A DNA stretch of 64,000 nt from Felis catus (taxonomy: Eukaryota): NCBI RefSeq assembly GCF_018350175.1, contig NC_058368.1, positions 91,390,001-91,454,000 of the forward strand, given 5' to 3'. Of this stretch, positions 1 through 62,890 are shown in pieces. The translations under genes and the position numbers were made by a program. Below the pieces are notes generated by a model. That model did not search any database. It had not been told where the DNA came from and worked only from the letters and a program-made list of their open reading frames with translations. Within the stretch, counting starts at the first letter, position 1, and each line of letters begins with the position of its first letter.

Positions 1-489
1 ATAAGCTGTCCTGGGCTCACCCGGGCACCCACAGTTCTGACCTGTAAAGACCTTCCTCCAGGAAAATCTAATATATTCATTCACTTTAAGTGCTTCGCCC
101 GTAAGATACTAACACAGTGCCCCCTTGTATTCAAGTATTCAGCCAAGAACTTAAATGGATTTACCCGGGCAGATTTTAGCTCAAGTTGTTATAATTTTAC
201 TAAAAATGTTATTTTACACTGGAAAGACACACAATTTCCTTTACAGTGATCATATGCCATAAGCTTTAAAGCTAGACACAAGCATTTCCTCATGTCCTTA
301 GAGACCTCTAAAAACACACATTCTCATCAAATCCACACACCCCTCCAGAGTCAATCTCAAGAAGAGTTTCTAGGTATGGCCCTCATCCTCTTTCCCAAAA
401 TGCTCTGATTCTTACAAATCTCTTTAGTCTCTCAAAAAAAGAAAAGTAAAAACCTGGCCATTTTGAACCATCTTGCAGCTGAGCCTTGC

Positions 490-655
490 TACCTTGATTG
501 TACATTAGAATCACTTGGGACTTTCAGAACTGCTGATATTTGGGCCCCAGCTGGATTATCACAGACTCATTGAGGAAAGGACCCTCACCAGCACTGGGAT
601 AGCCTTGCCAGATACACTAATTCTAATCTACAGCCTAGGTGTGATCAGTTCTTGA
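490..655 (+). mobile_element. MER5B-like hAT-Charlie DNA transposon relic, duplicated with each unit (also ~16890-17055, 19225-19382, 25880-26042, 33645-33792, 37488-37648, 47035-47190, 59285-59447)
   Basis: 'tgcacattagaa(t/c)cacctggg...tgggcccc...ccaggtagttctaatctacagcc' follows the MER5B consensus as I recall it (GCACATTAGAATCACCTGGG...TGGGCCCC...CCAGGTGATTCTAATGTGCAGCC). Confidence 0.7.
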
Positions 656-1066
656 AGTCCCTGCTCATCTTGAGCGCAGTGAGGTAGGAAGGTGTCAGGA
701 AGGCCCTGCTCTCAGGTGCAGCTTATGACAATGTACATAATGTTCCTCTAGGGAGTTGATCTCCACCCTTACTGCATCACTCAGAGTCTTTTGAAAAATA
801 CAAATCCCTGCACCCCAGCACAACATAACAGCCCTGAAACACTTTGAAAAGAAGTCCGCTGTAGCATCAGGGATGAGAAGCTGTTCTGCATTTGAATTCA
901 CATAGAGACATAATCCAAGAGATCACTGACCTTGCAGAGCAGTGGGAGAAGTGGACTTGACCACTTCTTTTGTGCTGAGAGGAAGCCTCACCCAGACTAG
1001 AGGGTGCCTTGCTAGAGGAGCCTTACCTCCCTCACTATAGACCCTCCACCAGCCCTTTGGTGTCCC

Positions 1067-1084
1067 TAGTGCCCCCTAGTGGCA
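1067..1084 (-). promoter_or_regulatory. CTCF-binding motif
   Basis: The minus strand reads tgccactagggggcacta, a close match to the CTCF core CCACYAGRKGGCRC. This is a motif only; occupancy is unknown. Confidence 0.55.
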
Positions 1085-3715
1085 TCTGGTACCTCCCACA
1101 GGTCTCAGGGGAAGGGGTGGGGACCAGGAATTGCATTGGAATTTCCTAAGTGTGGGTTGAGATCAATGACAGATTGGGGGGGGGGGGGCGGGGACATCCT
1201 ATAAGGGGTCACAGTCTGGATGGCCTCTATGCACAGGGTGATAGACACCTCAGTCAGGGGGAAGAGCCAGCTTGATGAATGGCCCTGATCGGTGATGTGC
1301 AACTAACACAGAAGAAGCAGAGCTGCCGAGCAAAAGCCAGCTCCCTATACTAAAGATAGTGCAGAAGATTACTGTGCCTGGAGTATGGATAATGGAGGGA
1401 CATCAGCCTGATCTGATCTATCCAGTAGACAGACATGGAAGAAAGAAACTGCTGTCCTGGAAAGTTTCAAAGATTTTGGTCCACATACCAGGGACCATGT
1501 AAGCAGGGTCCCCATCAGAATGCTATGGCTGTTTATGGGGGTGGCCTTTCATACCAGGAGTTTTTAGTTCTACTGTAGAAAGACCAGTTCATACTAAGTA
1601 TTTATGTTCTAGGATTTCAATGTTTCTGCTTAAGTTGAAGCTGTGAGTGAGGGATAAAAGGAATTCAGGAATTGTTCCTTATGAGGAGATGCTGTGGGCC
1701 CTCCCATGTGACCTACAAGGAACATCCTAAGGTCCCTGAGGAGACCCCTGCCCCCTTAGCTGTCCATGGTATCTCCATACCTATTTCCTGCCTCTTCCCC
1801 AGCAGACCCCACCCGAGAGGCAGTCAGCCACTCTGATGACTATTCTGACCCTGACTTTAAGACAAGTTGAACATTGAACCCCACTGCACTTCACAAGGGA
1901 GGTCATGGCCCCAAACCCAACAGAATGAAAGTAAGATATATAATTGAACAAGACAACATCTAATTCTTGGTTTTGTCTGGGGCTTGGGGAGTGGGGAACA
2001 TAAACAGAAACCAAGGGGCAGAGAGAAAACAGCTTTCTGATGCCTTGGGACCCATCGTCCTTCTCTCCATCTTCTATCTGTCTTCCTGCACAGAAACTGC
2101 GTATCCATCATAGCAGCTTTCAGATCATAGATCGTGGAGTCAAAATCCTGGAAATCTCAGGGAAATAGAGACTTCAGGTATCAGGGTGTGCATTTCTACC
2201 AACACCATAACCGCTCATTTTGCAATTTGGAGAGTGGAGCCCGTGAACACTGCAATCACTGCCCTATTTGTGATCAGACACACCCTCTCCCAGGAGCCCA
2301 GTCAAAACCTAGTTCAGGGTAAATGGTTTAGGGGATGTATCCCAAGTCCTGAGTCCTTAACCACAGGATTCATGGATTGGCCTGATTCAGTCAGGTGGAT
2401 GAGATAGAAGTTCTCTTCCTTTGCAATGCAAAGTGCTCGTACTCAGGGGAACAAGAGATGGGCACAGATCAGGGCACCTGGGAGCATTGAGACTCCTCTC
2501 AGACCTTCTCCCTGGAACTGAGGCTCACTCCCAGGGCACAACACTGGTTCTAGAGGGAATTGTCTTAACTGTAGGCTGACCAGCTATTCTGTGCACGGGA
2601 CAGGTCTATCACATCCAAGACTTTTACTAGTGACTGGGCTTCCACCTACAACAGCCAGCCAGACGCTGACAGCAAACACATTTCTATACTCAGGAACTCC
2701 TGACTCTCAAATTCCAGAAAAATCAGAGTAAGTGCCAGCTCTATGAGCTCTGCATACAGCCTAGTTGCTGCCAAGAGATGTATCACAGGGGAAACTCAGG
2801 AATGAAAAGGAGGCACGTCCCAGGGAGGCAGCTTCCTGTGTGTTGACGAGAAGTCACTTGTCTTTTATCTCATTACACAAGCATTTTCCCAACTGAGAAA
2901 TATGTGCCATGCACAGTTCTCTGTACCTTACAAATACGGATGCATTTGATCCTCAAGACATGCCTGGTGGACGATGCTATTACTACCCTCATTGGCAGAG
3001 CAGGTGTTAGCCTCCTTGACCCAGCTGCACTTCTCAGAGCTGGAGACAGACTCTCAGCAGTGAGGCCCCAGCACACAAAGCTGCTACATGCTGCTCCTGA
3101 CACCTTCCTGGGCTGGTCCTGCAACATTCCTGATGTTAAGGGGACTGTGGGTCTGCTCTGATCTGTGGGCTCCCTCACTCTATTCTGCATCTCCAATATT
3201 CCATTTAAGTCCTGATGAGGTTCTTGTCCTACCTCCTGTGCTCATGCTTTCCCTACATGCTTGATAAATAGACTGCTGTGGTCAGAGAAGCTTTCAAGTC
3301 CTACTGATTCCACCCTATGTCATTTCCCACTGATTCTGCTTGTAGGGAGTCGTGTGCCTGCTGATTTTAGAAGTCAGCATTGGATATTTTCTTGTTGGGA
3401 CTTGGAGAATTTGGTGCCCTTGAATAATATTGGCTTTGTTTTCTAGTGAAGTATTGTAAATCAGACTGATTTCACAGGATTGACACCCTGGGAGGAAATA
3501 TAGCCAGTTGGTCACCAAAGCTTTGTCCAGGGCTGTAGGCCATTATTGTACCAAGAGGTCTACCGGACAGAAAACCAGGCACTTGACAGGAAGCAGGGAC
3601 AAGGCTGACTTTGGTTACCTGAGGATGAAGGAAGAAGCTGATGAAGATGGAAGCTGATGGAGTTTAAGTCACAAATTCAAAATGTTCATCTCTGGCTTTA
3701 AATTCAAACTAATCT

Positions 3716-3909
3716 GGGGCACCTGGGTGGCTCAGTCAGTGGAGCATCTGACTTTGCCTCAGGTCATGATCTCATGGTCCATGAGTTTGAGCCCACGTCG
3801 GGCTCTGTGCTGACAGCTCAGAGCCTGGGGCCTGCTTTGGTTTCCGTGTCTCCCTCTCTCTCTGCCCCTCCCCCACTCGTGCTCTGTCAAAAATAAAACA
3901 TTAAAAAAA
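3716..3909 (+). mobile_element. SINEC_Fc-type (Can-SINE) tRNA-derived SINE
   Basis: ggggcacctgggtggctcagtc head, CT-rich region and A tail; TSD taaattcaaactaatct at 3699-3715 and 3910-3926. Confidence 0.97.
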
Positions 3910-6900
3910 TAAATTCAAACTAATCTACACAAGGATATATTCCCACCGCTCTCTTTATAATTCCCAGAAGGCTAAGGGTTTGTGAACATTAATAAAAGTT
4001 TCTTTTTGTTTGTTTTTAATAACTTGGTTTCATTAAGATGTATTAACCTGCCAAATAAAGCATTGGCCTTGAAGGACTCTTCCCCTGGACTTGTTCAGAG
4101 TGGATATGGCCCACAGGAGTGGCCAGGCCTTAGGCAAAGATTCAGGGAGAAGGTAAGTAGTGCCTTCAAGAGCTATGTGCCTTTATCCCTCTCTCAGGTC
4201 TTCCCTACAAATGCAGCTGTCTCCCATCTCAAGGTACCAGCTCCAGTCCATCACCACCCACCTTCCATTTGGAGAGTGCTGTCGTTACCCCAAATGTGAT
4301 CTAGGTGGAACATCCACAGGTACCATCAGGAAAGGCCTGATCCCAGAACCCTGCATGGTCATGACCATGCCCTTTCCTGCCTTTCTCTCAGGAGCCCCCA
4401 TACCCCAGCAGCATAGTCCATCTCCCCTGGTATGATCCACATCCTGCACTGGAATCTATTTGGAAAAATGAGAGATCCCAACACACTTCTCTTCCCCAAA
4501 TCCAATAAACAGTGGATATGTAAATAAATCATCTTCTGATTTTGCCTTGTAGCCAGGGCTTGGAGAGGATCTAAAAACAAACAAACAAACAAAAAAGATA
4601 GGGATAGTGGGGTGCTGTGTGTGTGGATGGCAAAATAGGAGAATTCTAAGCTCACCTCGTCCCATAAATAGAACTAGGTAACACTCACATCAGTGTAAAT
4701 TACCTGAAAAGTGACCTGAAGACTGGCAGAACAAACTCCACAACTACAGGTAGAAAAGAGACCACAACAAGGGTAGGGAAGGGTAGACATGGGTTTGGGA
4801 GCCAAAGGACCATGGCCGTCTCCAATGGGGAGGGAGCCAGTGACACAGAAGGGTGAAAACAGTATCACACCAGCAAGCCTGTATAAGGAAGATGAATCCC
4901 CAGATCATTTGGCTTTGAAAGTGAGATGGGCTTAACCTAATGAATTCTTAGAACCAGCAGGACTTAAAGCCTGGAATTTTAAAAATCAGCTGGCTTGGCT
5001 CTGAGAGCATTAGGAAGCAGAGTCTCCTCCCTTAAAGAGACAGCAGGACAAATGGCCTGGGAAATAGAGCATGGAAGCAGCAGTTTGAAAAACCCAAATG
5101 GCAGACAGGAGGGAGGGTGATTTACTCCTATCAGTGTGAGGCCTGGAGAGGCAGACACCACTTCCCCACTCTGCACACAGAGCCAGCTAGAGGAACCAAC
5201 AGGGCACCAACACTCGCTACTTAAGTTGCTACTTAAGCTGTACCCACCTTGTGCTTTGGCAAATCTTCCCATTCCAGTCAGTCATACATACCTCAGTCCT
5301 GGCAATGTGTGCCCCATCCCCCAAAAGACTGGTGCAAATCTTGCCAGCACCAGGTCTCTGCACCTGCACCTTTTGTAGGGCCTTGGTTCTGGCAGGTCAC
5401 ATTTCACAAGCAAACCAGCACGCACATTACTCAATGTACCCCATCTGGCTGGGAGCTAAACACTGCCCACAACAGGCAGAGAGATCCTCTGTAAACAATT
5501 GCACTGAAGGAAAAAGAGGCCAGGACCCAACAACAGAACATACACAACACAGAGGAGACACTCCCTACGGCACCAGGTCCTGGGGAAACAGGGGACACTG
5601 AACTGCAGGGCACTACAGTACCTCTTCATAAGACCATCACCTTTGGGAGCAGGAGACACAGCTGACTTTCCTAACACAAAAAAAGACACGCAAGTAAAAT
5701 GAGAAAAAGGAATATGTCCCAAATGAAAGAACCAGACAAAATGATAGCAAGAGACCTATATTACCAGCATAGGTAATATGCCTGATAGCAAATTTAAAGT
5801 AATGACCATAATGATACTCACTGGACTTGAGAAAAGAGTGAAGGACACTAGTGAGACTCTTCACAAAGAGATTTTAAAAACTAGTCTGATTAACACAATA
5901 AATGAAATTTAAAACACATTCAATACATAGCAGGCTAGAAGCAGAGAAATGAATTAATGACCACCTGGAAAATAGAGTAATGAAAAGAAATCAAGCTGAG
6001 CCAATGAGAGGAAAAAAAGTATTCAAAATGAGAATAGTCTTCGAGAACTCAGTGGCTCCATCAAGCATAACATACACATTAAGGAATCCCTGAAAAAAGA
6101 ACGGGAGGTGAAATTTTCAAGAAATAGTCACTGAAAACTTCCCTAATCTCAGGAAAGAAACCTATCCAGATCCAAGAGGTATAGAGATCACCCCTCCCTC
6201 CCTCCCCCTGCACCCCCTGAAAAAAAAAAATCAACCCTAGGAGGTCCACACCAATACACGGTAATTAAAATGGCAAAAAGTAATAAAATATTTCAAAAGC
6301 AGCATGAGCAAAGAAGAGTGTTACATATAAGGAAAACTCCATAAGGCTATCATGAAATTTTTCAACAGAAATTTTCCAGGCCAGAAGGGAGTAACAGGAT
6401 ATATTCAAAGTGCTGAAAGGAAAAAAATTTGCAGCCAAGAAAACTATCCAGCAAGTCTATCATTCAGAATAGAATGAGAGATGGAGTTCTCAAGCAAACA
6501 AAAGTCAAAGGAGTTCATGACCACTAAACCAGCCCTACAAGAAATATTAAAGGGGACTTTAAGTGGAAAGGAAAGACCATAAGTCAGTATGAAAAGTAAA
6601 ACAAACAAAAAAACAGTAAAAGTAAGTATTTCTGTAAAAAATAATTCAAGGCATTCATGTAATAAGATATGACACCAGATACCTAAAATGTGGAGGGGAG
6701 AGGAGTGAAGAATGGGTTCAAACACAGGCAACCATAAACTTAATATAGACTGCTATATGCAGAGGTTACATACAAACCTAATAACCACAAATCAAAATCT
6801 AGTAATAGATATGCAAAGAAGAGAAAGAAATCCAAGTATATCACTAGAGAGCTAACCACAAAAGAGCAAGAAAGGATCAGAGAAACACTACAAAACACAA

Positions 6901-8473
6901 AATGGGAATTTCAATAATTACTTTGAATTTAAATGGATGAAACACTCCAATCAAAAGACAGAGTGGCAGAATGAATTAAAAAAAAAAAATCCATCTATGC
7001 GTTGCCTACAAGAGACTCATTTCGGACCTAAAGACAACTGCAGATTAAAAGTGAGAGGATGGTTTAGGATGCAGCAAAGGCAGTCCTAAGAGGGAAGCAT
7101 ATGGGAATACAGGCCTATCTTGAGAAGCAAGAAGGGTCTCAAACACACAACCTAACCTTACACCTAAGAAAGCTAGAAAAGGACCAGTAAATAAAGCCTC
7201 ACGCCAGAAGGAAAATGAAGATTAGAGCAGAAATAAATGATATAGAAACAAATGATCAATGAAACTGAGAGCTGGTTCTTTGAGAGAATTAACAAAATTG
7301 ATAAAACCCCAGCCAAACTTACCAAAAAGAAAAGAGAAAGGACCTAAATAGATAAAAATCATGAATGAAAGAGGGGAGATCACAACAAACACCACAGAAA
7401 TACAAACAGTAAGAGAATACTATGAAACATGCCAACAACCTGGGCAATCTGGAAGAAATGGACAAATTCCTAGAAGTTCACAAACTACAAAAAATGCACC
7501 AAGAAGAAATAGAAAATTTTAAACAGACCCATAACCAGCAAAGAAATTGAATCAGTAGTCAAAAATCTCCCAACAAACAAGAGTCCTGGGCCAGATGGCT
7601 TCCCAGGGGAATTCTAGCAGACATTTAAAGAAGAGTTAAAACCTATTCTTAAACTGTTTCAAAAAAGATTGAGTTTAGAAGTTGTCCTTCGACTCTTCCT
7701 ATGAGGACAGCATTACCTTGATTCCAAAACCAGAAAAAGACCTCACTAAAAAGGAGAATTACAGGACAATATCCCTGATGAACATGGATGTAAAAATTAT
7801 CAATGAAGTATTAGCGAATTGAATTCAATAGTACATTAACAGAATTCTTCACCACAATCAAGTGGGATTTATTCCTGGGTTGCAGGGGTGGTTCTGCAAG
7901 TCAATCAACATGATACACCACGTTAATAGAAGGGTAAGAACCAAATGATCCTCTTAACAGATGCAGAAAAATCATTTGACAAAATATAGCCTCAATTCTT
8001 GATAAAAACCCTCAACAAAGTAGGGATAGATGGAACATACTTCATCATAAAGGCCACATATGAAAGACCTATTGACGATTGATAATATCATCCTCAATGG
8101 GAAAACTGAAAGCCTTTCTGCTACAGTCAGGAACAAGATAAGGATGTCCACTCTCACCATTACTGTTTAATATAGTGCTGGAAGTCTTAGCCTCAGCCAG
8201 ACACATCCAAATTGGCAAGGAGGAAGTCAAATTTTCACTATTTGCAGATGACATAATACTCTACAAAGAAAATAGGAAAGACTCCACCAAAAAATTGCTA
8301 AACTGATACATGAATTCAACAAAGTCACAGCATATAAAATCAACACACAGAAATCTGTTGCACTTCTATAACCAATAATGCAGGAATAATGCAAGGAATC
8401 CATCCCATTTTCAAGGGCACCAAAAATAATAAGATACCTAGGAATAAACCTAACTAAAGAGGTAGAAGATCCA

Positions 8474-8690
8474 GGGGCACCTGGGTGGCTCAGTCCGTTG
8501 GGCGTCCGACTTCAGCTCAGGTCATGATCTCATGGCTCGTGGGTTCAAGCCCCATGTCGGGCTCTGTGCTGACAGCTCAGACCCTGGAGCCTGTCTTCGG
8601 ATTCTGTGTCTCCCTTTCTGCCCCTCCCCTGTTCATGCTGTCTTTCTCTCAAAAATAAGTAAAACATAAAAAAATTTATAAAGTAAAAAT
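8474..8690 (+). mobile_element. SINEC_Fc-type SINE nested in L1 ORF2
   Basis: Can-SINE head and tail; TSD gtagaagatc at 8462-8471 and 8691-8700. Confidence 0.95.
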
Positions 8691-10187
8691 GTAGAAGATC
8701 TATACTCTGAAAACTATAAAGGACATGAAATTAAAGAGGACACAAGGAAATGGAAAAATATTCCATGCTAATGAATTGGAAGAACATTGTTAAGATGTGT
8801 AGATTGTTTGGGGCAGTATAGACATTTGGTGCAATCCCAATAAAATTACCACCAGCATTCTTCACAGGGTTAGAAGAAACAATCCTAAAATTTGTATGGA
8901 ACCAGAAAAGATCCCAAATAGCCAAAGCAATTCTGAAAAAGGAAAACAAAACTGGAAGCATCATGACTCCAGATGTCAAGCTATATTACAAAGCTGTAGT
9001 CATCAAGACAGTATGGTACTGGCATAAAAACAAACACATAGACCAATGAAACAGAATAGAAAACCTAGAAATGGACTCACAACTATATGGTCAACTCATC
9101 TTCAAAACAGGAAAGAATATCCAATGGAAAAAAAAGACCGTCTCTTCAATACATGGTGTTGGGAAAACTGGGCAACAACATGAAGAATGAAACCGGATCA
9201 CTTTCTTATACCACACACAAGAAATTGAAAATGGATGAAACACTTAAATGTGAGACAGGAAATGATCAAAATCCCAGAGGAGAACACAGGCAGTATTCTC
9301 TTTGACCTCGGCTACAGCGACTTCTTACTAGATACATTGCCGAAGGCAAGGGAAATGAAAGCAAAGGTGAATTCCTGGGACTTCAAGACAAAAGGCTTCT
9401 GCACAGTGGGGGGAAAAATAAAACTAAAGGCAGCCTACAGAAAGGGAGAAGATATTTGCAAACGACATAGCAGATAAAGGGCTATCCAAAAATCTATGAA
9501 GAACTTACCAAACTTAACACCAAAAAAACCCTAAATAATCCAAAAAAACCCTAAATAAGAAGTGGGGAGAAAACATGAATAGCCACTTTTCCAAAGAAGA
9601 CATCCAGATAGCTAATAGACCCATGAAGAGATGCATAACACTTAGCAGGGAAATACAAGTCAAAACCACAATAAGATATCACCTCACACCTGTCAGAATG
9701 GCTAAAATCAACAATACAAGAAACAAATGTTGATGAGGATGTGGAGAAACTGAAATCCCCTTGCCCTGTTGGTGGGAATGCAAACTGGTGCACCACTGTG
9801 GAAGATATAAAAAATAGAAGTACACTAAGATCTAATAATAGCACTACTGGTATTTATTCAACAGATAAAAATATTGATCCAAATATGTAACCCTATGCTT
9901 ATAGCAACATTATCAACAGCCATATTATGAAATCACTCCAGTCATTCATCAACTGATGTGATAAAGGTGATGGTGTGTATATATGTGTATCACATACAAT
10001 GAAATACCATTCAGCCATAAAAATGAATGAAATCTGTCATTTGCAACAAGTGGATGGAGCTAGAATATAATGTGAAGCGAAATCAGAGACAGACTCTTAA
10101 GTATAAAGTACAAATTGATGGTTACCGGAAGGGAGGTGGGTGGGAGGAATGGTTAATAGGTGATGGGATTAAGAGCACAGGTATCAT

Positions 10188-10402
10188 GGGGTGCCTGGGT
10201 GGCTCAGTCAGTTAAGCACCCAATTTCAGCTCAGGTCATGATCTCACAGTTTGTGGGTTGGAGCCCCGCATTGGGCTCTGTGCTCACAGCTCAGAACCTG
10301 GAGCCTACTTCAGATTCTTTGTCTCCCTCTCTCTTCCCCACTCATGTTCATGTGTTCGTTCTCTCTCTCTCTTTCTCTCAAAAATAAGCATTAAAAATTT
10401 TT
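10188..10402 (+). mobile_element. SINEC_Fc-type SINE nested in the L1 3'UTR
   Basis: ggggtgcctgggtggctcag head; decayed TSD aagagcacaggtatcat / aaaagtacatgtatcat. Confidence 0.93.
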
Positions 10403-10952
10403 AAAAGTACATGTATCATGATGAGCACTGGGTTACTATGGAATTGCTGAATCACTATATCGTACATGTGAAACTAACACTATGGCAATTATACTGGAAT
10501 AAAAATAACATTTGGAAAATAGATTTTTAGAATAGGGAGGGCAAGAGAAAGGGAGGCAGCTCTGTATCCTGGGGGTCTGGTCATTCTGACCAGTCACCCT
10601 GTCATTCTCACTCCATCATGTTCCTGCAAGGAGGATCCTTTACCATCACCAGGAACCTCAACTGCCCTGAACCTTATCAAGGAGTTAACCATTGGAAATC
10701 AGACTTTGATTCAGCTTGAGAGAAACAAAAGTCACAGTCATCTATTTGCTACTCCCCAAACCCTGTGTGCAGAAAATACAAATTGAAATCCAGTAAGAGG
10801 ATCCTCCTCTCTTTCTACCTGTACCCTGGAGGTGGTGGGATCCCAAAGTAGACAGGCCAAGGGACAACGTGAAATGAGGCTATTGGCTGACTTGAGGTCT
10901 GTCATCCTTCTCACATTCCTCTGTCAATCCTGCTCACTAGAGGATAATTTTC

Positions 10953-10953
<1 letters not shown>

Positions 10954-10990
<37 letters not shown>
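10954..10990 (+). repeat. Poly(A)37 tract followed by an A-rich tail
   Basis: Seen directly; absent from the paralogous position at ~54235-54245. Confidence 0.95.
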
Positions 10991-10996
<6 letters not shown>

Positions 10997-13900: not shown

Positions 13901-14891
13901 GGTACTGGGGGTGACTGTAGGAAGGCTGCCAGGTGGATACCCACACCCACCTACCCATCCACTCAGAGGCCTCAAGAGACAACCAGATGCTGTCAGAAAT
14001 GAAACATCAAGGAGTCAGAAGTGAACACAATGCTGTTCTAACGAAGGTAGGACCAAGATAACCGAGCACTAAGAGCCACCTGTCCCCAGCCTTCCCCCCT
14101 GAGACCTGAGGGAGGTGCTAGCCAGCACTGGGGGCACCAGGGACACCAAAGGGCTGAAGAGTCCTACAATGGGAGAGGCAAGGCTCCTCTGGAAGAGGGT
14201 AAGTCTGGGGTTCACCCTGAACACAAATATGGTCCCTCTGTGTGTCTGAGACCCCTGTGCACAGCCCCACCTCGACTACCTCAGCCTCTTATCACACACT
14301 TGGGTTAAAGTGAGGAACAAATTCCTCAGTTTCTCTCTCTGCTCCAATTTCTTTTCCCCTGACAGTCTTACAATATAATTTTCCTCATGCCTTCCAGGAA
14401 CATACAGTGACTCCATCTCTTCAAATGCCTCCAGGTCACTTCCATGACACTTCAGCCACTGTTCTGGGCTCTCAGGCACCCACAGTTCAGACCCATGAAG
14501 ACCTTCCTCCAGGAAAACCTAAATGTGTTAATTCACATCTAGTACCTTGCCTGTAAGATACTAATACAGTGCCCCTTGTATTCTTCAGCCAAGAACTTAA
14601 ATACTCTGTGTAAATACGTTTAACTGAAATTCTTACATTCTTGCTGAAATTGTTTTCATCTAAAAAGTGAAACTATTTCCCTTACAGTGAGGATTTGCCA
14701 TAATATGATTCAAGGATAAACGTGAGCATTTCTTCACATGTCCTCAAGACAATCATATAAACATTTGAAAAGTCACTTCGTCAAATGCAATATCCCCCAA
14801 GAGTCAATCTCAGGAAGAATTCTAAGTGTGGCCCTCATCCTCTTCCCTGAGCTGCTCTGACATTTATAATGTTCTCTTCAGTCTCTCAGGG

Positions 14892-19800: not shown

Positions 19801-20076
19801 GCACAAGATGACTGACACCTCAGTCTGGAGTAGATTCCAGCTGGATGAAGGCATAGGGATCCTGAGACAACAGCATGCTCGAAGTACTTAGGATGATGCA
19901 GAATATCAGCGTGGCTGGAGCATGAGAGTAGAAGACGACCAGCAAGATCTAGCAAGGGTATGTGGAAGAAACTGCTGTCCTGAAGAGCTAAACAAGGAGG
20001 TGTAGCCCACATACCAGTAATCACATAGGCAGGGTGCCCATCAGATTGCTATGGCTGTTTTCCATTGGATTGACTT

Positions 20077-29788: not shown

Positions 29789-29832
<44 letters not shown>

Positions 29833-50334: not shown

Positions 50335-50740
50335 TGATGCAGGAGAGAAGCATCAAAGGAAAAGACTTCAAAAGGGAAGGGCTGGATAAGGTGCAAGGCC
50401 TTAGGACATGTTTACACAGCTGAACACAGCTGTGGCTCACTCATAAGGAACGCCTAGAGCCATTAACATTGTCCAGGGCTGGATCCTCCTTCACACCTGA
50501 CCCTTCCTAGTGGTATAGGAACCAATTAACTCAAAATTCAACCTTGAAAAGCTAAACCATTAGACTGATTAACACACTTGCTTACCTGACTTTATGCACA
50601 TAGTCTTTAGCAATTATCCTAATAAAAAGAAGCTTCATTCTGGAGCCGGGGCCTCATTCCAATTCATATGAGGACCTTTACTTAACTGCACTTTGTTTGC
50701 AGACTCATCTTTTGCGACTCTGGCCATACTCCCTGCAACA
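50335..50740 (+). mobile_element. Solo LTR with 6-bp TSD
   Basis: tgatgcagg ... cctgcaaca inverted termini, 406 bp, aataaa at 50621, TSD ggctgg at 50329-50334 and 50741-50746. The empty site is visible at ~3111 and ~27890. Confidence 0.9.
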
Positions 50741-50992
50741 GGCTGGTCCTGCAACATTCCTAATGTTAAGGGGACTGTGTGTCTGCTCTGGTCTGTGGAC
50801 TCCCTCACTATTCTGCATTTCCACCATTCCATTTAGGTCCTGATGTTCTTGTCCTACCTCCTGTACTCATGCTTTCCCTACATGCTTGACCACAACAGTC
50901 TGTTTACCAGAAAGGCTTTCAAGTCCTTCCCTACTGATTCTACCCGCTGTCATTTCCCACTGTTGGCTTCTAGTGGGTAGTGTGCCTGATGC

Positions 50993-51359
50993 TTTTATTT
51001 TTATTTTTTAATGTTTATTTTCGAGAGAGGGAGCGAGAGAGGGAGCGAGAGAGGGAGCGAGAGAGGGAGCGAGAGAGGGAGCGAGAGAGGGAGCGAGAGA
51101 GGGAGCGAGAGAGGGAGCGAGAGAGGGAGCGAGAGAGGGAGCGAGAGAGGGAGCGAGAGAGGGAGCGAGAGAGGGAGCGAGAGAGGGAGCGAGAGAGGGA
51201 GCGAGAGAGGGAGCGAGAGAGGGAGCCACAGAATGCGAAGCAGGCTCCAGGCTCTGAGCCATCAGCACAGAGCCTGACGCGGGGCTCAAACCCACACACC
51301 ATGAGATCATGACCGGAGTTGAAGTCAGACACTCAACTGACTGAGCCACCCTAGCACCC
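50993..51359 (-). mobile_element. SINEC_Fc-type SINE, antisense, with an expanded internal repeat
   Basis: T-rich tail, then gaagcaggctccaggctctgagc...gagatcatgacc...ctgagccacc; decayed TSD cctg(a/c)tg(c/a)tttt. Confidence 0.95.
51022..51225. repeat. (CGAGAGAGGGAG)17 perfect 12-mer minisatellite
   Basis: 204 bp, 17 exact copies, in place of the SINE (CT)n region. Confidence 0.97.
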
Positions 51360-52912
51360 TCCTGCTGATTTTAGACACACAGAAGCATAGGGGATTTTTC
51401 TTGTTGGGGTTGGAGGACTGGGTCCCTTTAACATGGACATTGGTCTGTGCTCAGGTTTGGTACCAGGACTTAGACTGATTTCACTTTATTTCACAATTTT
51501 ATGCAAAGATTGTGTTTACTTGTCTTCAGATGGTTTGAGTCATGATTTCCAGCCAAGGCAAAGAACTGGAAAATCTGATGGAAAATCCAGATGTAACTAC
51601 AGAAAGATGAGGATCCTGAATAGAAGATGGAATTTAAAACCCTTCTGAGCCCCTGTGTTCACCACATGGGGAGCCAGGCCCAGGACATGAATGAGCTGGT
51701 CCCATGGGGCCCCTTGGTCTATACCGTGTTCTGAGAAGTGAGGATTGCTCTCAGACATTCCCCAAAGGCAGACACCCCCACCATGGAGAGCTGGTCTGCA
51801 CTGCACACAGGTGACCATGTCATTAATTGGTCACCTGGATCCCATTAGCCCTGAACCAGGATCAAGCCAAAAGGAAAAATTTAAGAGGAGGGATAAAGAG
51901 GCTGACACATTATTTTAGAAGTCATCACAGATAATGTGCACTTCATGACCTCTATGTCAGAACTGCAATGGGACACATGTCAAGAATGAGAGCTAGACCC
52001 AGACCTGGACCAAGAGACAGAAGAGGAAGTTAGTGGTACAGCTCCTTTGAGAGGCACAAAGTGGACAAGGAGACCATGATGGGGGTCAAAGATCCTTGGT
52101 CTGCATGGAGGATTATCAGCTCACCCAAAACAAGTTCCCTGGGCCTGCTGGCTGGGAAGGTCTCAGAAGAGAGAATCAGGAAGAGTGGCCCCCATTGACC
52201 CTCCAGTGGCTGGGCAGCCAAGCCTCCTCATGCCACCTATGTCCTTAGCATGGTCATCCTGCCTGCTGTCCCCACTGCAGGTCTGTTCCAAGGACATACC
52301 CTTGAGACAGTGAGAGGTATGGAGATGATCAGGATGGTATGCATGCCTGACCCCAGTTAAGGCCTCTGTGTAAGCCTTTAAGATTTGGTGGTCCTGTGCA
52401 GGAAGTCTACTCATCTTGGGACCACCTGAGACAGGCTACTCATCTCTGTTCCATTGCATATTAAACCTGCCCCCCCACCATCTGGAGTCACCTGCTCATT
52501 CTTCAGTCTCTCCCTACCCTCCCACACATGGGCTCATTTCAGATTATACACAGCAAGCTCCTGGCCAGGTTCTACCAACAGAAGAAAGATTCTGGAACCA
52601 GAGGAAAGAGGCAGCTAGGAGATTTCTCTGGCATGATGAACACTTAGCATCATGGTACCCAGACAGGAAAGATGACGGGGCTGTGGACAGTGATACAGAG
52701 TGTGGATTAAAGCAGATGCTGCAGGGCACAAGGAGGGGCCCTTAGTTCACTGGGACTTTGATGCCCTGAGGGAAATACAGCCAGTAGAGGACCAGAGCTT
52801 TGCCCAGGGCTGCAGGCCATTTTGCACCAAGATGCCTGGGGGATAGAGAACCGCAAGAAGCACAGACAAGGCTGAGCTGGTCACCTGGAGAACAGGACTA
52901 AAGAAGAGGGTA

Positions 52913-53107
52913 GGGGCACTTGGGTGACTCAGTTGAGCATCCAACTTAGGCTCATGTCATGACCTCACGGTTCGTGGGTTCAAGCCCCACATCAGGGTCA
53001 GGGCTGACAGCTTAGAGCCTGGAGCCTGCTTCGGATTCTGTGTCTCCCTCTCTCTCCCATTGTCCCTGGCTTGTGCTTGGTCTCCTGCTCTTCCAAAAAG
53101 ACACATT
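52913..53107 (+). mobile_element. Can-SINE
   Basis: ggggcacttgggtgactcagttgagc...gagcctggagcctgcttcggattctgtgtctccc; decayed tail. Confidence 0.92.
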
Positions 53108-56100
53108 AAGAAAGATTTGTATATGAAGATGATGGAAGCTGATACAGTTGGAGCCACAAATGTAAGATGTACATGTCTGGTTTTAAGTTCAAACTCTTTT
53201 ACACGAGGATACATTCCCGCTGCTTTCTCCACAATTCCCAGAAGGCTGCTAGGGGGGTGATCGGTGAATGTGCCCAAAAGGTTTTTGTTTTTAATAACTT
53301 AGCTTCATTCATGTGTGTTAGCCTTCCTATAAACCATTGCCCTTGAAGGACTTTTCCCTGGACTTGTTCAGAGTAGACATGGCCCATCAAAGTGGCCAGG
53401 CCCTAGACAAGGATTCAGGGATCAAGTGGGTGAAGCCTTCAAGAGCTGTGAAGCTGCCTCCCAGCTCCAATACTGGACCACTACCCACCTTCCATTTGTG
53501 GAGTGATGTGGGTAACCCCAGATGTCATCTATGTGGAACATCCTCAGGTCCCACAGGAAGGCCTGATCCCTGAGCCCTACATGGTCATGACCATGCCTTT
53601 TCCTGCCTCTCTCCCAATAGCTCCCAAATCCCAGCAGACGTTTCATCTTCCCTGACTACAATTCAGATCCTGGACTTAAATTTCATTGGGATCCAGGGTC
53701 TAATTTAGACATAGGAGAGATTCTAAGACTCCCTGCCTTTTCTAAAACCAATGAAGAATTGAAGTAGAACTGGATCACCTCAAGGCCCAGCCTATAGCTG
53801 GGGCTAGAGAGGGTGCTAAAATACAGGGAGGGCAGGAGACAAGGAGGCAGTTCTGTATCCTGTGGACCTGGCACCCATCACCCTGTGACTCTCTCTCCAT
53901 CATATGCTCCTGCACAGAGGATCCTTTACCACTACCAGGAACCTCCACTACCTTGAATCTGATTAAGGACTTACCATTGGAAAAGGGACCTAAGAAAAAA
54001 AATCACAGTCATGTAGTCTCTAATACTCCTCATCCCCTAACCCAGTAGCAGAAAATACAATTTGAAATACAGTAAGAGGATTTCTCTTCCTACCTGGATC
54101 CTGGGGCAGGGGGAGGGGGAGCCTAGAGTAGACACAGGCTAAGGGACAACATGGAATCAGGCACTTGGCTGACTCAGAATCTATCATCTTTCTCACATTT
54201 GTCTGCACTTAAGTCCTGCTCCCCAAAGGAAACTTTCTGAAGAGATCCAAATATCTAAGGTGATCTGTTGGTTAGCTACAGCCAGAAAAGTGCTCCATGT
54301 ACCTGGGTTAACATGGGAGCTCAGACCTAGGCTCAGTGGTCCTTTGCCCATGAGTCAAGCTCCAGGCAAGCTGGGCCCACTGGGCTGGAACAGATGCCCC
54401 TGGGCTCCTGGTACCCAGACATACCCTCTGAGGCTCTCCTGCAAAGGTTGTACAGAGGCAGCATCCCCAGGCACCCCTAATGATCCAGGCACTGCATCCC
54501 TGAGGTTGCTCCATGTAACATGGGGTCATTCTGAGTGGGCTCTCCTGATGCAGACACCCACCCATCTGCTGCTCTCTTTTTCCCTCATCTGCCACAGGAC
54601 CCCAGGGACAATTCTGTACCATATGACATGAAGCATGCAGGCTTCTGTACCTTATGACATCATAAAGGATGCAGCCTACTGCAGGCTGGCCACAGTCCTG
54701 TGTTCCCCTGATGACCAAGATCAGGGGCACTGCTCATCCCACCTTTCTCCAGAACAAAAGGAGGGTGGGTAAGATAACCCAGAATGATGTAACTGGCCAA
54801 GAAGCACTCACTGGGGTTAGGCAGATGCCAAATGGGATCTGCAATTGAGACCATATGGACAGACTGGTACCCTACTTCCCCACTCAGGTGGCACTTCCTG
54901 AACAAGAAGTACTGCAGGATCTTCTAGAAGGGGCACTGCCCCAAGAAGGTGATGAAGCCCACAGGACATTTTCATCAAAACAGCCACACACATCTCAATG
55001 GGGTCACCCATGCTAGGCCAATCCTGGGTGAGATTTCTATCCATCAGAGAAAAGTAGGACATCTCTTGGTCAAAGAAGTGTCTATAAAGGAGCTTTGAGG
55101 ACACTTCCAAACTGTATCCTTCTGAAGACCAGTCTATAGATGTAGAACGTTCAATCCTCAGTGTGAAAGGTTTCATTGAAAGAAGTTTTAACATGTGACT
55201 GGAAACTTCCTTCTTCTCTTGGGTTCACAGTACATCATCTCCCAGTTTTCCTGGGAAAGACCATCTCAGGTACAGGTGTGAAACGACTGGCAGAGAACAA
55301 AGGCCTCAATCCTAGAGACAATCAAGAAGGACAGTAGCCGAGTAGGGCTTGACTCCATCTACAGGCAGCACTGGAAATCCACCAGGAAACATCCTTGAGA
55401 TCCAGAGACAGCTCTCAGCAGAGGGGAAGGGAGGCTGATGGCTCTATACTCTGGGACCTCAGGCTCAGCCTCACAAGCAGCCTCCCTGGGGAAAGTGTAG
55501 AGGAACCTGGAAATTTCCCCCAGGGCTACTGGGGGCTGATGAGCAGACACTGGGTGACTTGGGCTTGCAGATGTAGCAAGTGGTCCCAGAACCTGAGGAA
55601 GGCAAGAGGCAAGTGAACTCTCTCTCACCCATGTTCAAGGTCCAACCTCAGAAATCCCAGTACCTCCCAGAGCTCTGTCACACCAGGAAGGCCAGCAGCA
55701 GTCTATTCTGTGAACACTGCCTGACAGAAGGTTGGACAGGACACACCTGAGGGTCAAGTGGAAAACAAGGTCATGAGAGTCTATTGCCTGCCATATATTC
55801 ATGTGGGATTCCAACTTTGGAACCAGCTGCCATTGCCAAGACCATAAAGCCAGTGGGGTGGGTCACATTTATGAACTGCAGGCCTGGTGGATGCAGAGGC
55901 TGCTCTGGCTGAGGGCAGTCTGACCTTGACTGCTACATAGCTCAGGACCCTAAACTTTCAACATGACCAGGGCCCCTGGGAGGCTCAAGTGGCCCAGCAG
56001 AGATGTGTGGTGAGGACCTCCAAGACCCAGCTAGGCACCCAGGGCCTGAGTCTCCCTTTGTCACCTTCAAGCCCATCTCTTCAACTTTACCCAAGAGAAA

Positions 56101-56786
56101 GTCTCAGCTCACCTAGGGAGCAGGACCCAAATTCCTCTCCCTCTGAACCAGATCTGAAGGATTTGACATTCTCTGGAACATTGATCCAGACTCCACTGGG
56201 GAGACAAGGTATTAGTATGGTCCACCATACCCATGAATCCTTCTTTCACCAAAGCCAAAGTCATGAATAAACTTTGAAATGGAAACAAATAACCTTGAAC
56301 TTTCCCCCTGTAGCCAGGATAGGAGGCAAGAGACAGGGAAGCTAAGAAACAGGGAGGGGGCTCAGCTTCCTGAGGCCTTGAGATTGAGATAGCAGGGGGA
56401 GAAGTGTGGCCATTCATTCTAAGTGCTCACAGGCTCATTGACCTTCAAGGAACAACTTGTATATCAGAGAGAACAGCCTTTCGATCCTGCCTTCAGCATT
56501 TTGTAGGAGCACAGCCTTGACCTTTCATTTAGAAGTTCTGGGGCCTCAGCCTCCTAGAACACTGAGCTGCTGCTTCAATCAAGTATTTTTGTATTATGTA
56601 AACATCCATGCACGTATGCCGAGGTCACCAAGGTCTTATATCCGTTTCTCTACATGCCTCTCAAGAAGCGTCAATGAAATTTCCTCCTGATAGAAATCCC
56701 AGCTTACTCTGGTCTTTCTCTTCAAAACAATCATTACACAAGACACTTCACTTTCATGTCATTAACTTCAGTCAAAACCATTAGGA

Positions 56787-56788
56787 GT

Positions 56789-56838
<50 letters not shown>

Positions 56839-57834
56839 TGTCTCAGAATTGATTTTGGGCTTCGAGTCTGGTTGTGAGGTGCCCCCACTCCCATTGTCCC
56901 CTGCCCTCCAATGTGGCACGTGCAGAGGAGTCTGAGACATCCTTTGCCAAAGTCCCAGAATGGAGACTGAAGGGTACCTAGAGACACAAATAGAAGTCCA
57001 GAATGAAAATAAGGTCACCATCAGATGAGATGATGGCGGAGGAGTTAGAAATTGTGCTAATATCTCCCCAAGTCCAGGTTCCCCAAAAGCCTTCCAGCAG
57101 AGTCTTGATGAAGACTCTACCAAAGACCTTGAGACCATTCCACAGAGGAATCCGCCCAACGCTGCAGCTTCCAGGCAGAAGTTCAGGAAATTCTGCTCTG
57201 AGGACACAGCTGGGCCCAGGGAGGTCCTCAGACATCTCTAGGAGTTTGCTAGACAGTGGCTGAGACCTGATATTCACACAAAGGAGATGTGGAGATACTG
57301 GTACAAGAGCAGTTCCAGGCCATCCTGCCTAGGATCTCAGCACAGGCCCAGAGAGGTCAGCCTGGAGTCAGAATCACTAGCTAAGGCCTGTCACTGGGTT
57401 CTTGCTCAACCTACATGTGAGAAGTCACCAAAGGTTCTCTTTGTTGGTCCAAGAGCCAACTGCACTCATGGGGAAATATGAACCTAGGTTTTTTTGAGCT
57501 TGCCTTTGACTAGTTGTAATAAGAACCCATCAAAACCCATGTCTGGGTCTCTCTCTGGCTGAGGCAGATCTCATTCCTGGGACTGAGCTCTAGCTAGAAA
57601 GTTTCTCCACTCTGTTAGGACAGTCAGCCCATTGCTTGATTTTGCTCTGTTGAATGCCTCTATTTCTGCACTTTCTGACATGCTTTAATAAGTTATGTAT
57701 CCAAAAAGGTAAATTGCTTCAACTTTCAGAATTCTTGATTCTTGCTGTGGTGGCATGAATGGAAGCTTCTGTAACCCCATCCAGGAAACTAACATTTCAA
57801 GGATCTCTCAAATGAAAGTTTGGTCTTAAAAAAT
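56787..57834. other. Unit-specific ~1-kb insertion with an LTR-like 3' part (unclassified)
   Basis: Paralogous units are contiguous across this point (~13470 and ~32160). attagga occurs on both sides. The segment ~57500-57796 ends ...aattcttgattcttg...aactaaca, like an LTR U5. Confidence 0.45.
56790..56836. repeat. (TG)n microsatellite
   Basis: Seen directly. Confidence 0.95.
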
Positions 57835-60800
57835 TAGGATTCAGCCCTTAGACAGATATTGTCTTCCTGCTCAGAAGATGAACTTTGCAGAATGGAGTTG
57901 GCCTCAAGGCCACTAAAGGATGCTTGTGAGCGACCATGGATCCAAAAATGAACATTCCAAGGAACCAGATCCTTGGTCTCGGGTGTCAAAACCCAGGCAG
58001 AGGAACTCCGCTAGGACCATTGCTGGACAATGCACGCATAGATTAGAGATAGGGGTGGCTATAGGCACCTAAGCGGGGTTTTTGGTGCAGTCAACCTGTC
58101 TCAGAGCCCCCCACTCCCCTGGGGCAGGTCTGGGGAAGTAGACACTGGTGCCTGAACATAGTTAGACCAGGCTCTGTGCTCATCCTGGGGGGCCTCTCAA
58201 AGACCCTCCTTCAGGGCACAGGAGGCAGCTACTACAGAACCAGAACCTGGGGGCCCTTCTCTTGGTACTGGGAGTGATTAAGAAGGCTGCCAGGTGGATA
58301 CCCCCACCCACCTACCCATCCATTCAGAGGCCTCAAGAGACAACTTCCTGCCCTCAGATTTCATGAAGCATCTGTTGGTCAGGAGTGAACATGATGTTGG
58401 TCTGACCCAGGCTCACACCTGGATGACCCAGCAGTCAGGGCCACTTGGTCCTCACCTTTTACCTGCAGACTTGAGGGAGAGACCAGCCATCACCAGGGGG
58501 CACAGGGGACACCAAAGGTCTCGAGGGTCTACAGTGGGAGAGAGAAGACTCCTTGTAGCGGTTCAGGATGGGGCTCCCCTCAGCACAGACTTGGTCCTGA
58601 TGTCTGGGTCTCCTGTCCACAGCCCCACCCCTCACCTACACTCAAGCCTCTGCCCAAGCACTTGGATTTAAGTGACCGGCAAATCCCTCAGTTCCTCTCT
58701 GCTCCAATTTCTTTTCCCGACAGTCTTACAATATAATGTTCCTCCTGTCATCCAGGAATACATAGTGACTCCCTCTCCAAATGCCTCCAAGTCATGACCG
58801 TGGCACTTCAGCCAATGTCCTGGGCTCCCCCAGGCACCCACAGTTCTGACCCATGAAGACCCTCCTCTAGGAAAACCTACCATGTTCATTCAAATCTGGT
58901 ACTTTGTAGGATATGGACGCAGTGACCCTTGTATTCAAGTATTCAGCCAAGAACTTAAGTTTATACAGGAAGTATTTAACTGAAGTTCTTATATTTTTGC
59001 TAAAAATATTGTACACTAAGAAGTAAAACCATTTCTCTCACAGTGAGGATTTGCCATAAGCTTTAAGGCTGAACAATGGCATTTTCTCACATGATCAAGA
59101 CAGCCCTACAAACCTTTAAAAAGTCACTTCGTCAAATGCAGAGTCCGTCTCAGGAAGAATTCCAGGTCTGGCCCTCGTCTTCTTCCCTGAGCTGCTCTGA
59201 TATTTATAAAGCTCTCGAGTCTCCCAGGAGAAGAAAAAAGGAAAGTAAAGAACCCAGACTAGTGGACCCTCCTGGGGCTGAGCTGCTGCACTCAGAGCAC
59301 ATACTAGAACCACCCAGGACCTTCAGAACTGCTACTACTTGGGTCCCGCCTGGATCATCACATCAGAATCCCTGAAGAAGGGACCTCATTAGCACTGGGA
59401 AACCCTCTTCAGGTAGTTCTAATCTATAGTCTCAGTGTGACTCACTAAAATCCCAGCCCCTGCAGCATAGTGAGGTGGGGAAGTCAAGGAGGCTCCCGCT
59501 CTCATACGGCTCATGACAGGATACTTGCTATTCCTTGACAGGAGGAAATCTCCACCCAGGCTGCATGCTGAAATCACCCAGACACTTCAAAAATGTCAGT
59601 TCCTGGACCTCACCTTCAGGTACTGAATTCTCCAACACTGGGACTGACCTTTGAAAAGAGGAATCCACTGTCGCCTCAGGACTGGGAAGGAGTCTGCAGG
59701 TGAATTCACTCACACACATGATCCCTGCTCTGACTGACCTCAGACAGCGAGTGGGAAAGGGGACTTGACCAAGGACTTACACTGAAATTGACTAAGTGTT
59801 GGCTGAGGTCAAGGACAGACTAAGGGACAGTACTTATGATGAGTGCACTCTGGAAAGCCTTTATGCACAAGACAACAGACACCTCGGTCAGGGGTAGGAG
59901 GCCAGCTTGATGAAAAGCCCTGGAGAGGGACATGCAACTAACAGAAGGAGCACAGCTCCCAAGACCTAAGGATGCTTGATATTCTCAGCATGGTGCAGTA
60001 TGGATGTTTGAGGTTCTCAGTGTGGCTGAAACAGATGATTGAGGAAATTCAGCTTGATCAAGTGGACAGATGTGAAAAAGAAATTCCTGTCCTGAATAGC
60101 CTAAGAAAGAGGCTTGGTCTGCATACCAGGGACAGGGAGAGAAAGATCCCTATCAGAATGCTGTGGCTGTTGACCTTGAGTGACATTCCATGCCTGGACT
60201 TTTTACTTCTAGTGTGAAAACAGATCTAGTTCACACCCTGTATGAGTGATAGTGATTTCTCTTAAGTTGAAGCTGTGAGTGAGCTATGAAGGGAATTCAG
60301 GAATTGTTCCCTATGAGAAGATGGTGTGGGCCCCCCCATGTGACTTACAAGAACATCCTAAGATCCCTGATGGGATCCCTATACCCTCAGATGTCCATGG
60401 TATCTCCACACCCATTTCCTGTCTCCTCTTCAGCAGATTCCACCCCAGAGACAGTGAGCTATTGCTTAGGACTGAACTTTAAGATAATTTGAACATCAAA
60501 GCCTACTGCACCTGACACAAGGGATACCATGGCCACTTCTGGTCTCTATATCCAATGGCATGAAAATCTGTGTGAATGAATAAAAGGACATCTATTTCTG
60601 TCTTGTGCTTGGGACTCAGAACACAGACCTCAGAGCATGGAGAAAACTCAGCTTCCTGGGCCTTGGGACCCATCATTCTTCTCCCTCTCCTCCATTGCCC
60701 TACCTGCATGGAGACTCCTTCCCCATCATGGTGGCTTCAAGTCCTAGAGGAGGGAGTAAGAATCCTGACGTTAGCCTTTCCTGAGGGATCAGATGGCTAT

Positions 60801-61659
60801 TCTTTCAGGTTCCTGGGCGTCACTCTCTCCATTTAATGTACAGCTTCCGTCTCTCACTTCAGAACTACATAGTGTAGTTTATAAGTTTTAAAATAACATG
60901 TTTATTTGTACCTTATCTTTTAGACCTTTTTCTCCACATTTCCTTGAAAAAGTTCACTGGATGATTCCATCTCTTGAGTAGACTCAAAGTATTAATTATG
61001 TCAGGTAAACATCCATCTATATACATCCACCTTATTTCACCTTCCTAACAATGCCTAAAGTAAGACCAAACACTAGATTGGGGTATTCGAAAAAAATATC
61101 TTTCCCATGGATAATATAGGCTTGGTGAGAACTCAGTTGCCTTATGGGTCATAGAAGGCACCCATCATCTCATCGCTGGGGCAGAAATGAACATTTGAGC
61201 CCAGAGCTGGGGTTAGTTGACAACTTCTGACCTGCATGTTAAATCCCATGCTGGGGGTCACATTAGGATCTGTTGCCCTGCGCAGTTTACTACACGTCAG
61301 TTAATGACAGCCATGGGTACAGGAACGTCTGACCAGAATTGGAAAAACCACAACCCTAATCAGAGACCTCCCTCCACCCAGGGACAAGCTCCTGTGTACA
61401 GTTACCCATATAAAGAGGGTTAATTTAACACCAAGGACAAGACACACAGGGTTGACAGTGAAGATGCTACTGCTGGTGCCCATGAGAAGAATCTTTAATG
61501 TCAGAACTATTTCAGTTCTAGAGTGAAGAACCATCAGCTAATTTAAGAGTTCTACACAGACTGGGGTTTCTGTACTTCCCACTTGCATGGAACCCCTCAG
61601 CAAGGAAAAAATTCTGAGATCAGGGGTGTGTATTTGTGAAACTGCCCCAACCTTTGACA

Positions 61660-62800
61660 ATGTGACTCCAGAAACCCCAGCTTCTCTAGACCACAGCACA
61701 TCTTCTCCCAGGATTCCACACACAACCCAGCTCAGGTGCAAGTGTGGGATGATGGCACAAGAGAACAAAGGCTCCCAAACCTGGATGAACCAACTAGGAC
61801 AGTGGCCTGGTTGGCCCTGACTCCATCCATAGGCAGCTCTTGGAATCCACCAGGACACAGCCCTCAGCTCAGCACACAGTCCCAGCTGAGAGAGAGGCTG
61901 AAAGTCACAGCTGCTTCCAAGGACCTCTGAACTCAACCCCACACAAGCAGCCTCGTGGAAAGTGAGGAGCAGCGTGGACACCCCCCCCCTACACCATGAC
62001 TGGTGGTTGAGGAGCTGACACTGGGAGACTTGGGCAAGTGGATCCAGAACCTCACGAACCCTGGAGGCAGGTGGAATCTCTCTGGTCCATCCTTCCCATT
62101 TGGCCATCAGAAATTCCACTACATCCCAGAAGGCCATCAGTCGACAAATGATCTACAAAACCTTCATTATTGGTAGTTCAACACCTCACTGAAAGGTTGA
62201 AAGGAAACTCATGTGAGTCTGCCATCTGTCACCTTTTCAGGCTAGGGATTCCAACATGGAACCAGCTGCCTTTGCCAGTTCCCAAAGCCAGGAGGATGGG
62301 TCACATTCATTGACTACAGTCCCTGGGTTACAGGGGTTGCTTTGGCTGAGGGCAGTCTGACCTGGACTCCTTATAGAATATGAACTTTAAACATGAGCAG
62401 GATGCCTGAGAGGCTCAAGCGTCCCAGGAAGTGATGTGTGATAAGGACTTCCAGAACCTGGCCAGGCACTCAGGGCCTGAGTCTTCCCCTGTCACCTTCA
62501 AGCCCATCTCAACTTCACCCAAGAGAAGATCCATCTTGCCACAGGATCTAGATAGATCCTTCATAAACTCTGAACCAGATCTGGAGATTTTAAGATCCTC
62601 TGAACATTGATCCCAACTCAATTTAGCACAGCCCCCTATACAAATGAACTCCTTCCCAAGGCCAAGGTCATAAATAAACCTTGAAATGGGAACAGACGAC
62701 TTTGATCTTTCTCCATGTAGTCAGGATTGGAGCAGAGAGACAGAGAAACCAAGAGCTGGGAGGGGCTCAACTTCCAGGGGCCTTGAGGCTGAGATAGCAG
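61660..62800 (+). pseudogene. Further 5'-deleted SPATA31-like large-exon fragment
   Basis: Homologous to 22655-23810; joined to the upstream module at ccccaacctttgacaatgtgactcc. Confidence 0.55.
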
Positions 62801-62890
62801 GGGGAGAATTGTGACCATTTATTCTTAGTACTCACAGGCCCATTGATCTTCAAGAAACAACTTCTACATAGAGAATAGCTTTTGGTTTTT

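Follow-up and report, generated by a model that had tools for sequence, protein, structure and literature searches.

An old tandem pseudogene array in the cat genome, marked by BUD31 and IK retrocopies and perhaps built on a SPATA31-family scaffold

Among the described systems closest to the locus reported here are the SPATA31 (FAM75) gene family and the pachytene clusters of PIWI-interacting RNA (piRNA) that contain pseudogenes. C5orf60, since renamed SPATA31J1, lies in a duplicated region at human 5q35.3 and encodes a DUF4599 protein. Its expression is given as testis-specific, without a listed mouse homologue (PMC7436996, supplement rows), and FAM205A carries both DUF4599 and FAM75 domains, according to excerpts of PMC13423385. 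Antisense processed pseudogenes occur in piRNA clusters (excerpts of PMC4105748 and PMC4423968), which are also enriched in unprocessed pseudogenes; a primate survey describes the antisense pseudogenes in such clusters as mostly by-products, with no signs of selection (both in excerpts of PMC6461890). Here we describe a tandem array from Felis catus, contained in a stretch of 64,000 nucleotides (nt) that we call the window (assembly GCF_018350175.1, contig NC_058368.1, positions 91,390,001 to 91,454,000 of the forward strand; all coordinates below count from its first letter). An earlier interpretation of the same letters, made without database searches and referred to below as the sequence-only reading, had proposed a hidden array of decayed SPATA31/FAM205-like genes. 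With a probability of roughly 0.6, we interpret the locus as tandemly repeated non-coding DNA that arose by amplification of a single dead unit, one with a SPATA31-family origin and an early retrocopy of the splicing-factor gene BUD31.

Comparison of the window with itself (self-BLAST) revealed head-to-tail repeats from position 1 to ~62883, where the array ends on the right at the 5′ end of a long interspersed element 1 (L1). With 49242-61655 (unit c7, the most complete copy) as the mapping reference, all of the window except L1s, short interspersed elements (SINEs) and small inserts maps onto this one segment. A core of ~1.6 kb is present in eight copies with pairwise identities of 65.5-90.2%. 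Three of these cores belong to long units (c1, c3 and c7, beginning near 2255, 27095 and 49242/49481) and five to short units (c2, c4, c5, c6 and c8, beginning near 22029, 33804, 39637, 43405 and 61463), from which the upstream part is absent. From left to right, all on the plus strand, the array consists of the tail of a unit that extends beyond the left end of the window (1-2150, 68-69% identical to 58816-60767), c1 (2255-18847, delimited by self-comparison and broken by two L1 insertions), a partial duplicate of a unit tail (18850-22028, placed by mapping to c7), c2 (22029-27086), c3 (27095-33802), c4 (33804-39636), c5 (39637-43404, with an internal deletion), c6 (43405-49241), c7 (49242-61462) and c8 (61463-62883, truncated by the L1). 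In a tree of the cores, the long-unit copies cluster together, as do c2, c4, c5 and c6, with c8 in between. Kimura two-parameter (K2P) distances between cores range from 0.10 to 0.47 and, under the mammalian neutral rates that we assume, the deepest split is presumably at least as old as the carnivores.

Sampled words of 33804-43400 were 96-97% present in six sequencing runs from four studies, among 24 runs listed, of which gut and mammal metagenome runs were set aside, and read depth, computed for four runs over 17.1 kb (33804-50900, 30 bins), was flat across all 30 bins in one of them (X15). Because independent runs contain the words of the array and depth in X15 is even, the array is not an assembly artefact: it is real, and on this point the sequence-only reading was right. 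Tandem Repeats Finder reported nothing beyond simple repeats in the window, and an Rfam search of the window returned no matches.

Of the coding content in each unit, the part with the strongest support is a retrocopy of BUD31 (G10; PF01125, PDB 5mqf_Q), which the sequence-only reading had overlooked. In c7, BUD31 residues 4-144 are colinear with 55496-55909 on the plus strand (phmmer against PDB, E value 1.7e-14; Pfam, E value 5e-5). Whereas the parent gene has coding introns, the copies in the window are intronless, and the c7 frame is disabled, with its 138 codons in 414 nt interrupted by stops and frameshifts. Pfam also detects BUD31 in the core of c1 (12237-12634, plus strand; E value 5.8e-5), where the DNA matches the c7 copy. 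Homologous DNA is found in all eight cores, the remaining copies lying at ~22994-23305 (c2), 30854-31277 (c3), ~34798-35071 (c4), ~40586-40941 (c5), ~44398-44718 (c6) and ~61999-62349 (c8); the locus thus holds a processed pseudogene amplified eightfold. Since the insert sits in every core, its insertion presumably predates the duplications. One additional, inverted fragment (41831-42156) marks the deletion junction of c5 and consists of the 3′ end of the retrocopy plus downstream flank; its identity to the forward copies is 70-81%, and within a long transcript the two could base-pair. In the Logan data, a predicted protein of 92 residues (P0002) shares 45% identity with the part of the core immediately upstream of BUD31, which points to an additional copy or to an orthologous array in a different genome.

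The copies of the array diverged as non-coding DNA, without codon constraint. Mismatches between copies showed no consistent excess at lag 3 in eight segment classes (the row for the IK retrocopy described below is small and ambiguous), only 11-24% of small insertions and deletions (indels) were multiples of three, and the longest stop-free stretch in the putative SPATA31 exon of c7 covers 152 of 1126 codons. Divergence of this kind indicates that one dead unit was amplified, not that several genes each decayed, and it makes the "unannotated subfamily" of the sequence-only reading an overstatement; the array encodes no protein. Superimposed on this divergence are four tracts of 361-709 nt with 93.8-98.5% identity between copies that are otherwise 73-85% identical, namely 39126-39834 with 48731-49439 (97.6%), 40578-41249 with 44355-45021 (98.5%), 30902-31463 with 55538-56099 (93.8%) and 2885-3245 with 27664-28024 (97.2%); they are most simply explained by gene conversion. 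Of these four clearest tracts, the second and third named cover the BUD31 retrocopy, in two separate unit pairs.

A second retrocopy, of IK (Protein Red; PF07807 RED_C, PDB 6q8i_K), is confined to the long units, with parts in all three. In c7 this processed pseudogene spans 51552-52835 on the plus strand (phmmer against PDB Protein Red, E value 5.7e-11): residues 180-356 (in 474 nt) and then 437-510 align in a broken frame, residues 1-179 are without match, and a C-terminal remnant runs to ~53180, past a SINE. The c3 copy (28617-29660, plus strand) is 72.9% identical to that of c7, and its C-terminus matches Pfam RED_C at 29472-29621 (E value 0.0022); c1 retains a 3′ remnant (3480-3693, plus strand) that is 74.8% identical to 29445-29660, the interval containing the RED_C match. 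The segments at ~3600 and ~29600 that had been described as DUF4599-like are this IK C-terminus, and that motif was therefore misassigned. About 350 extra bases separate IK residues 356 and 437 (52026-52619 in c7, likewise in c3) and may stem from an old insertion event or from parental transcript sequence that was retained. One further PDB match to IK fell on a simple repeat and was discounted.

The scaffold around these retrocopies is probably the remnant of a SPATA31-family gene, a view that rests on short motifs. We judged them by eye against an alignment of SPATA31A/C and mouse Spata31 (PMC5338094, supplement file 10), in which several find counterparts in the same order and at rough spacing. 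Within the putative exon-4 remnant of c7 (53460-55400, plus strand, delimited by motif order), HSEWALL at 54527 (HHKWDLVR in c1) lies opposite HPEWPLLR of SPATA31, HWG followed by LGRCQ at 54809 lies opposite HWGNLGRIQ, and LGQ followed by LGE at ~55012 lies opposite LGQILGE, with one base lost, a loss common to the aligned copies. SWLT in the short copies stands opposite SPATA31 SWLA, ALEIH opposite mouse ALEAH, and QASQE..CD at 62416, after the BUD31 insert, opposite the C-type QASQELCD. Upstream, a hydrophobic, exon-1-like stretch of c3 (~27900-28100) reads LSYFLC where the human protein has LSYFRC. The long units also carry a Pro-x-Cys-x-Leu-Cys motif (~4290, 30270 and 53510), intact in two copies and degenerate in the third and without a Pfam match, which we take to resemble the core of DUF4599. 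The motifs quoted in the sequence-only reading are present on the plus strand where it had placed them (PAPVHHHP at 4237, HSPSPL at 4412, LADSES at 54165, HSEWALL at 54527, LSPE at 54743, SQIY at 11823, 22589 and 34342, and the hydrophobic stretch near 27912). The frame giving LGQSW was considered as the SPATA31 SW motif and dropped in favor of the LGQ/LGE alignment.

A series of searches and controls weighs against this origin. FAM75 and DUF4599 had no match in any Pfam scan of plus-strand frames (2901-4500, 10501-14900, 27701-30400 and 49601-59200, plus 51 short slices), scans that excluded the minus strand and the unit tails and whose single-frame sensitivity is low on frameshifted DNA. No SPATA31 protein was found among 1.84 billion protein representatives queried with one frame of 53201-55489; the two matches returned were the window's own open reading frame (ORF) and an unnamed ORF of 92 residues. 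Word searches scored 0 of 201 and 0 of 129 candidates, evidence that the tool's own note calls weak, and Atlas look-ups gave no usable match. A three-motif chain in c7 scored 89 against published SPATA31A motifs. Of 245 random-protein decoys, 37 matched this value at the spacing tolerance that the chain needs and 16 did so when the tolerance was halved, a limit that the real spacing satisfies only after a 43-base local duplication within c7 has been set aside; an initial version of the chain, lacking one gap type, was matched by all 552 of 552 decoys. Single motifs scored about equally on the minus strand, and several blocks that human and mouse have conserved (KFQLE, RFWAKHRW and the WGLPSLH core) could not be made out by eye. 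Because the chain test used three chosen motifs and not the whole protein, it sets a lower bound, yet it lends no support. The decoys overturned our by-eye impression of a highly significant chain, and the claim that the motifs exceed chance was not confirmed. A pattern scan of metagenome contigs for a SPATA31 hallmark motif, run to obtain a family member, had 0 matches. What survives of the proposed SPATA31/FAM205 array is that it is decayed, tandemly amplified and carnivoran, with a family-like motif order visible by eye; a match to FAM75, DUF4599, SPATA31 or FAM205 did not emerge from the single-frame searches, which, for searches of that kind, is the outcome that the sequence-only reading had itself set as its refutation. 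We do not file the array as a member of the SPATA31 family.

Other inserts distinguish individual copies. A six-frame comparison of 49242-62891 with PDB gave plus-strand matches to IK/RED, BUD31, a SCAN domain and low-complexity sequence only, and the minus-strand frames yielded nothing useful. The SCAN match belongs to a retroposed fragment of a ZSCAN/ZKSCAN-type gene, present only in c7 (56780-57838, plus strand; Pfam SCAN, 44.5 bits against a cut-off of 27; best PDB match the ZNF174 SCAN domain, E value 3e-9); short direct repeats flank it, its 5′ end carries a (GT)n run, and the corresponding sites of c1 and c3 are empty. Three further plus-strand inserts are presumably L1s. The first (4464-10533, ends approximate) is found only in c1, is A-rich with nested SINEs and no paralogue in the window, and has an ORF2-like translation that we take to mark a decayed L1. 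The next (14895-16830, ends approximate), unique in the window, consists only of what we take to be the 5′ part of an L1, enclosed by short direct repeats that match each other; retention of that end is unusual. The third (62890-64000), which by its sequence and rise in G+C content we take to be an L1 5′ untranslated region and ORF1 start, is CpG-rich and apparently young; the array may continue beyond it. A high-copy TG...CA element of ~400 bases (50336-50741, no strand assigned), whose depth in X15 is 97x the array mean, is probably a solo long terminal repeat (LTR) of a fairly young family. At 51022-51226, a perfect 12-base tandem repeat of 17 copies has expanded out of the (GA)n tract belonging to a SINE on the minus strand; SINEs in the window are of the tRNA type.

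How, then, should the scaffold be understood? The same array and retrocopies could have formed on old unique DNA or some other fossil, with a merely fortuitous likeness to a long protein rich in Pro, Ser and Gln, a possibility that deserves real weight though well short of an even chance. Every family search was negative while similarly decayed retrocopies were detected, three-motif chains from random proteins with a similar composition score ~85 against the 89 observed, and one of the eight motifs in the sequence-only reading turned out to belong to another gene. The parents of the BUD31, IK and SCAN copies, however, evolve slowly and SPATA31 does not, so that these positive controls were easier than the SPATA31 test; moreover, more than three motifs stand in family order, and the Pro-x-Cys-x-Leu-Cys motif occupies its expected place in two long copies, if only in degenerate form in the third. 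The opposite view, that a SPATA31/FAM205-like subfamily duplicated while functional and its members then decayed singly, would accommodate the motif likenesses and the presence of three long units in which a stretch resembling exon 1 lies upstream, but we consider it very unlikely: codon periodicity and an excess of in-frame indels are both absent between copies, nothing upstream of the LGQ/LGE motif is present in the five short units, and the copies have in common both the retrocopied BUD31 and the loss of one base in LGQ/LGE, which would therefore be older than the duplications.

A further proposal can be combined with either scaffold, namely that the array lies within a putative pachytene piRNA cluster, or a similar long minus-strand germline transcript, from which the BUD31, IK, SCAN and L1 inserts would give rise to antisense small RNAs; we advance it tentatively. 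All three L1s and all three retrocopies are on the plus strand (6/6, two-sided p 0.03), as are six of eight SINEs. Outside the inserts the minus strand is richer in G+T, the skew expected under germline transcription of that strand, although the measure draws on eight copies that are not independent and differs from segment to segment, and polarized substitutions lean the expected way without reaching significance (p ~0.2). Run X1, which we guess to be RNA, has coverage in all 30 bins, with a mean depth of 24.5 and contigs totaling 1018 Mb, compared with 9.7 and 2329 Mb for X15, and its LTR bin stands at 18.8x the array mean as against 97x in X15; depth in X1 climbs rightward, and no splice joints are listed. 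Such enrichment for the locus fits a long unspliced transcript but would fit other enrichments too, and X1, whose RNA kind is a guess, may be DNA. Eight guessed-RNA runs from three studies contain 25-78% of the sampled words of 33804-43400, but single-cell and poly(A) runs (X21 and X24) yielded just 2 and 11 reads, respectively, of 12.9 million each (1-2% of the run). No promoter was identified in the window, where only scattered short plus-strand matches to what we take to be the A-MYB consensus occur; a cluster promoter would probably lie outside it. Antisense bias is, moreover, usual in introns as well (excerpts of PMC6461890), and the searched supplements of PMC6461890, PMC4094622 and PMC4423968 contain neither BUD31 nor SPATA31. 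The fullest version of this proposal, a carnivore germline small-RNA locus derived from an amplified dead SPATA31-family gene, with antisense BUD31 in each unit and IK in the long units, conversion homogenizing BUD31, and piRNAs directed against splicing-factor or SPATA31 transcripts in spermatocytes, strikes us as improbable. Regulation of the retrocopy parents by the array is likewise improbable, because the retrocopies are heavily diverged.

Returning to the reading that we prefer, amplification of one dead SPATA31-derived unit, the following history can be proposed. The unit would have started as a SPATA31-family gene (~60%), into which a BUD31 mRNA copy, now present in eight cores, would have been retroposed before all visible duplications. 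Head-to-tail duplication into the long and short types seen in the unit map followed, with the long type gaining the IK/RED retrocopy and single copies later taking up the SCAN-gene retro-fragment, the L1s, the solo LTR and SINEs. Unequal crossing-over and gene conversion, the latter suggested by the near-identical tracts, may keep reshuffling the copies. Any activity would most likely take the form of a long minus-strand germline transcript with antisense retrocopies, a suggestion that we offer with less confidence than the rest.

Collectively, our results describe an old pseudogene array, perhaps with a SPATA31-family scaffold, in which retrocopies of BUD31 and IK serve as markers; it encodes nothing, and any function is putative. 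Literature searches on piRNA clusters, pseudogenes, BUD31, SPATA31 and C5orf60 found no paper on this array. It offers a clean record of a dead gene, marked by a retrocopy and amplified to at least 63 kb of diverged repeats, which neither tandem-repeat finders nor ORF callers pick up. The shared inserts of BUD31 and IK can serve directly as markers for dating and ordering the duplications across carnivores, and if the locus is a testis piRNA cluster, it would allow a direct test of cluster origin by duplication of a dead gene.

Pachytene piRNA clusters with pseudogenes, as described in excerpts of PMC4105748, PMC6461890 and PMC4423968, share with this array duplicated non-coding DNA in which pseudogenes and transposons face one way; a single retrocopy repeated in every unit, as here, is not mentioned in those excerpts. 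SPATA31, in turn, is a family of labile copy number in which pseudogene copies and gene conversion occur (excerpts of PMC5338094), and the array resembles it in the order of its short motifs and in the hydrophobic, N-terminal-type stretch upstream. It differs in having no significant match to the family and no long exon-4 ORF, and in a putative exon that is split by the BUD31 retrocopy. Finally, whereas the primate SPATA31 copies are described as recent and mostly coding (excerpts of PMC5338094), the copies in the cat array are 65-90% alike and have diverged as non-coding DNA.

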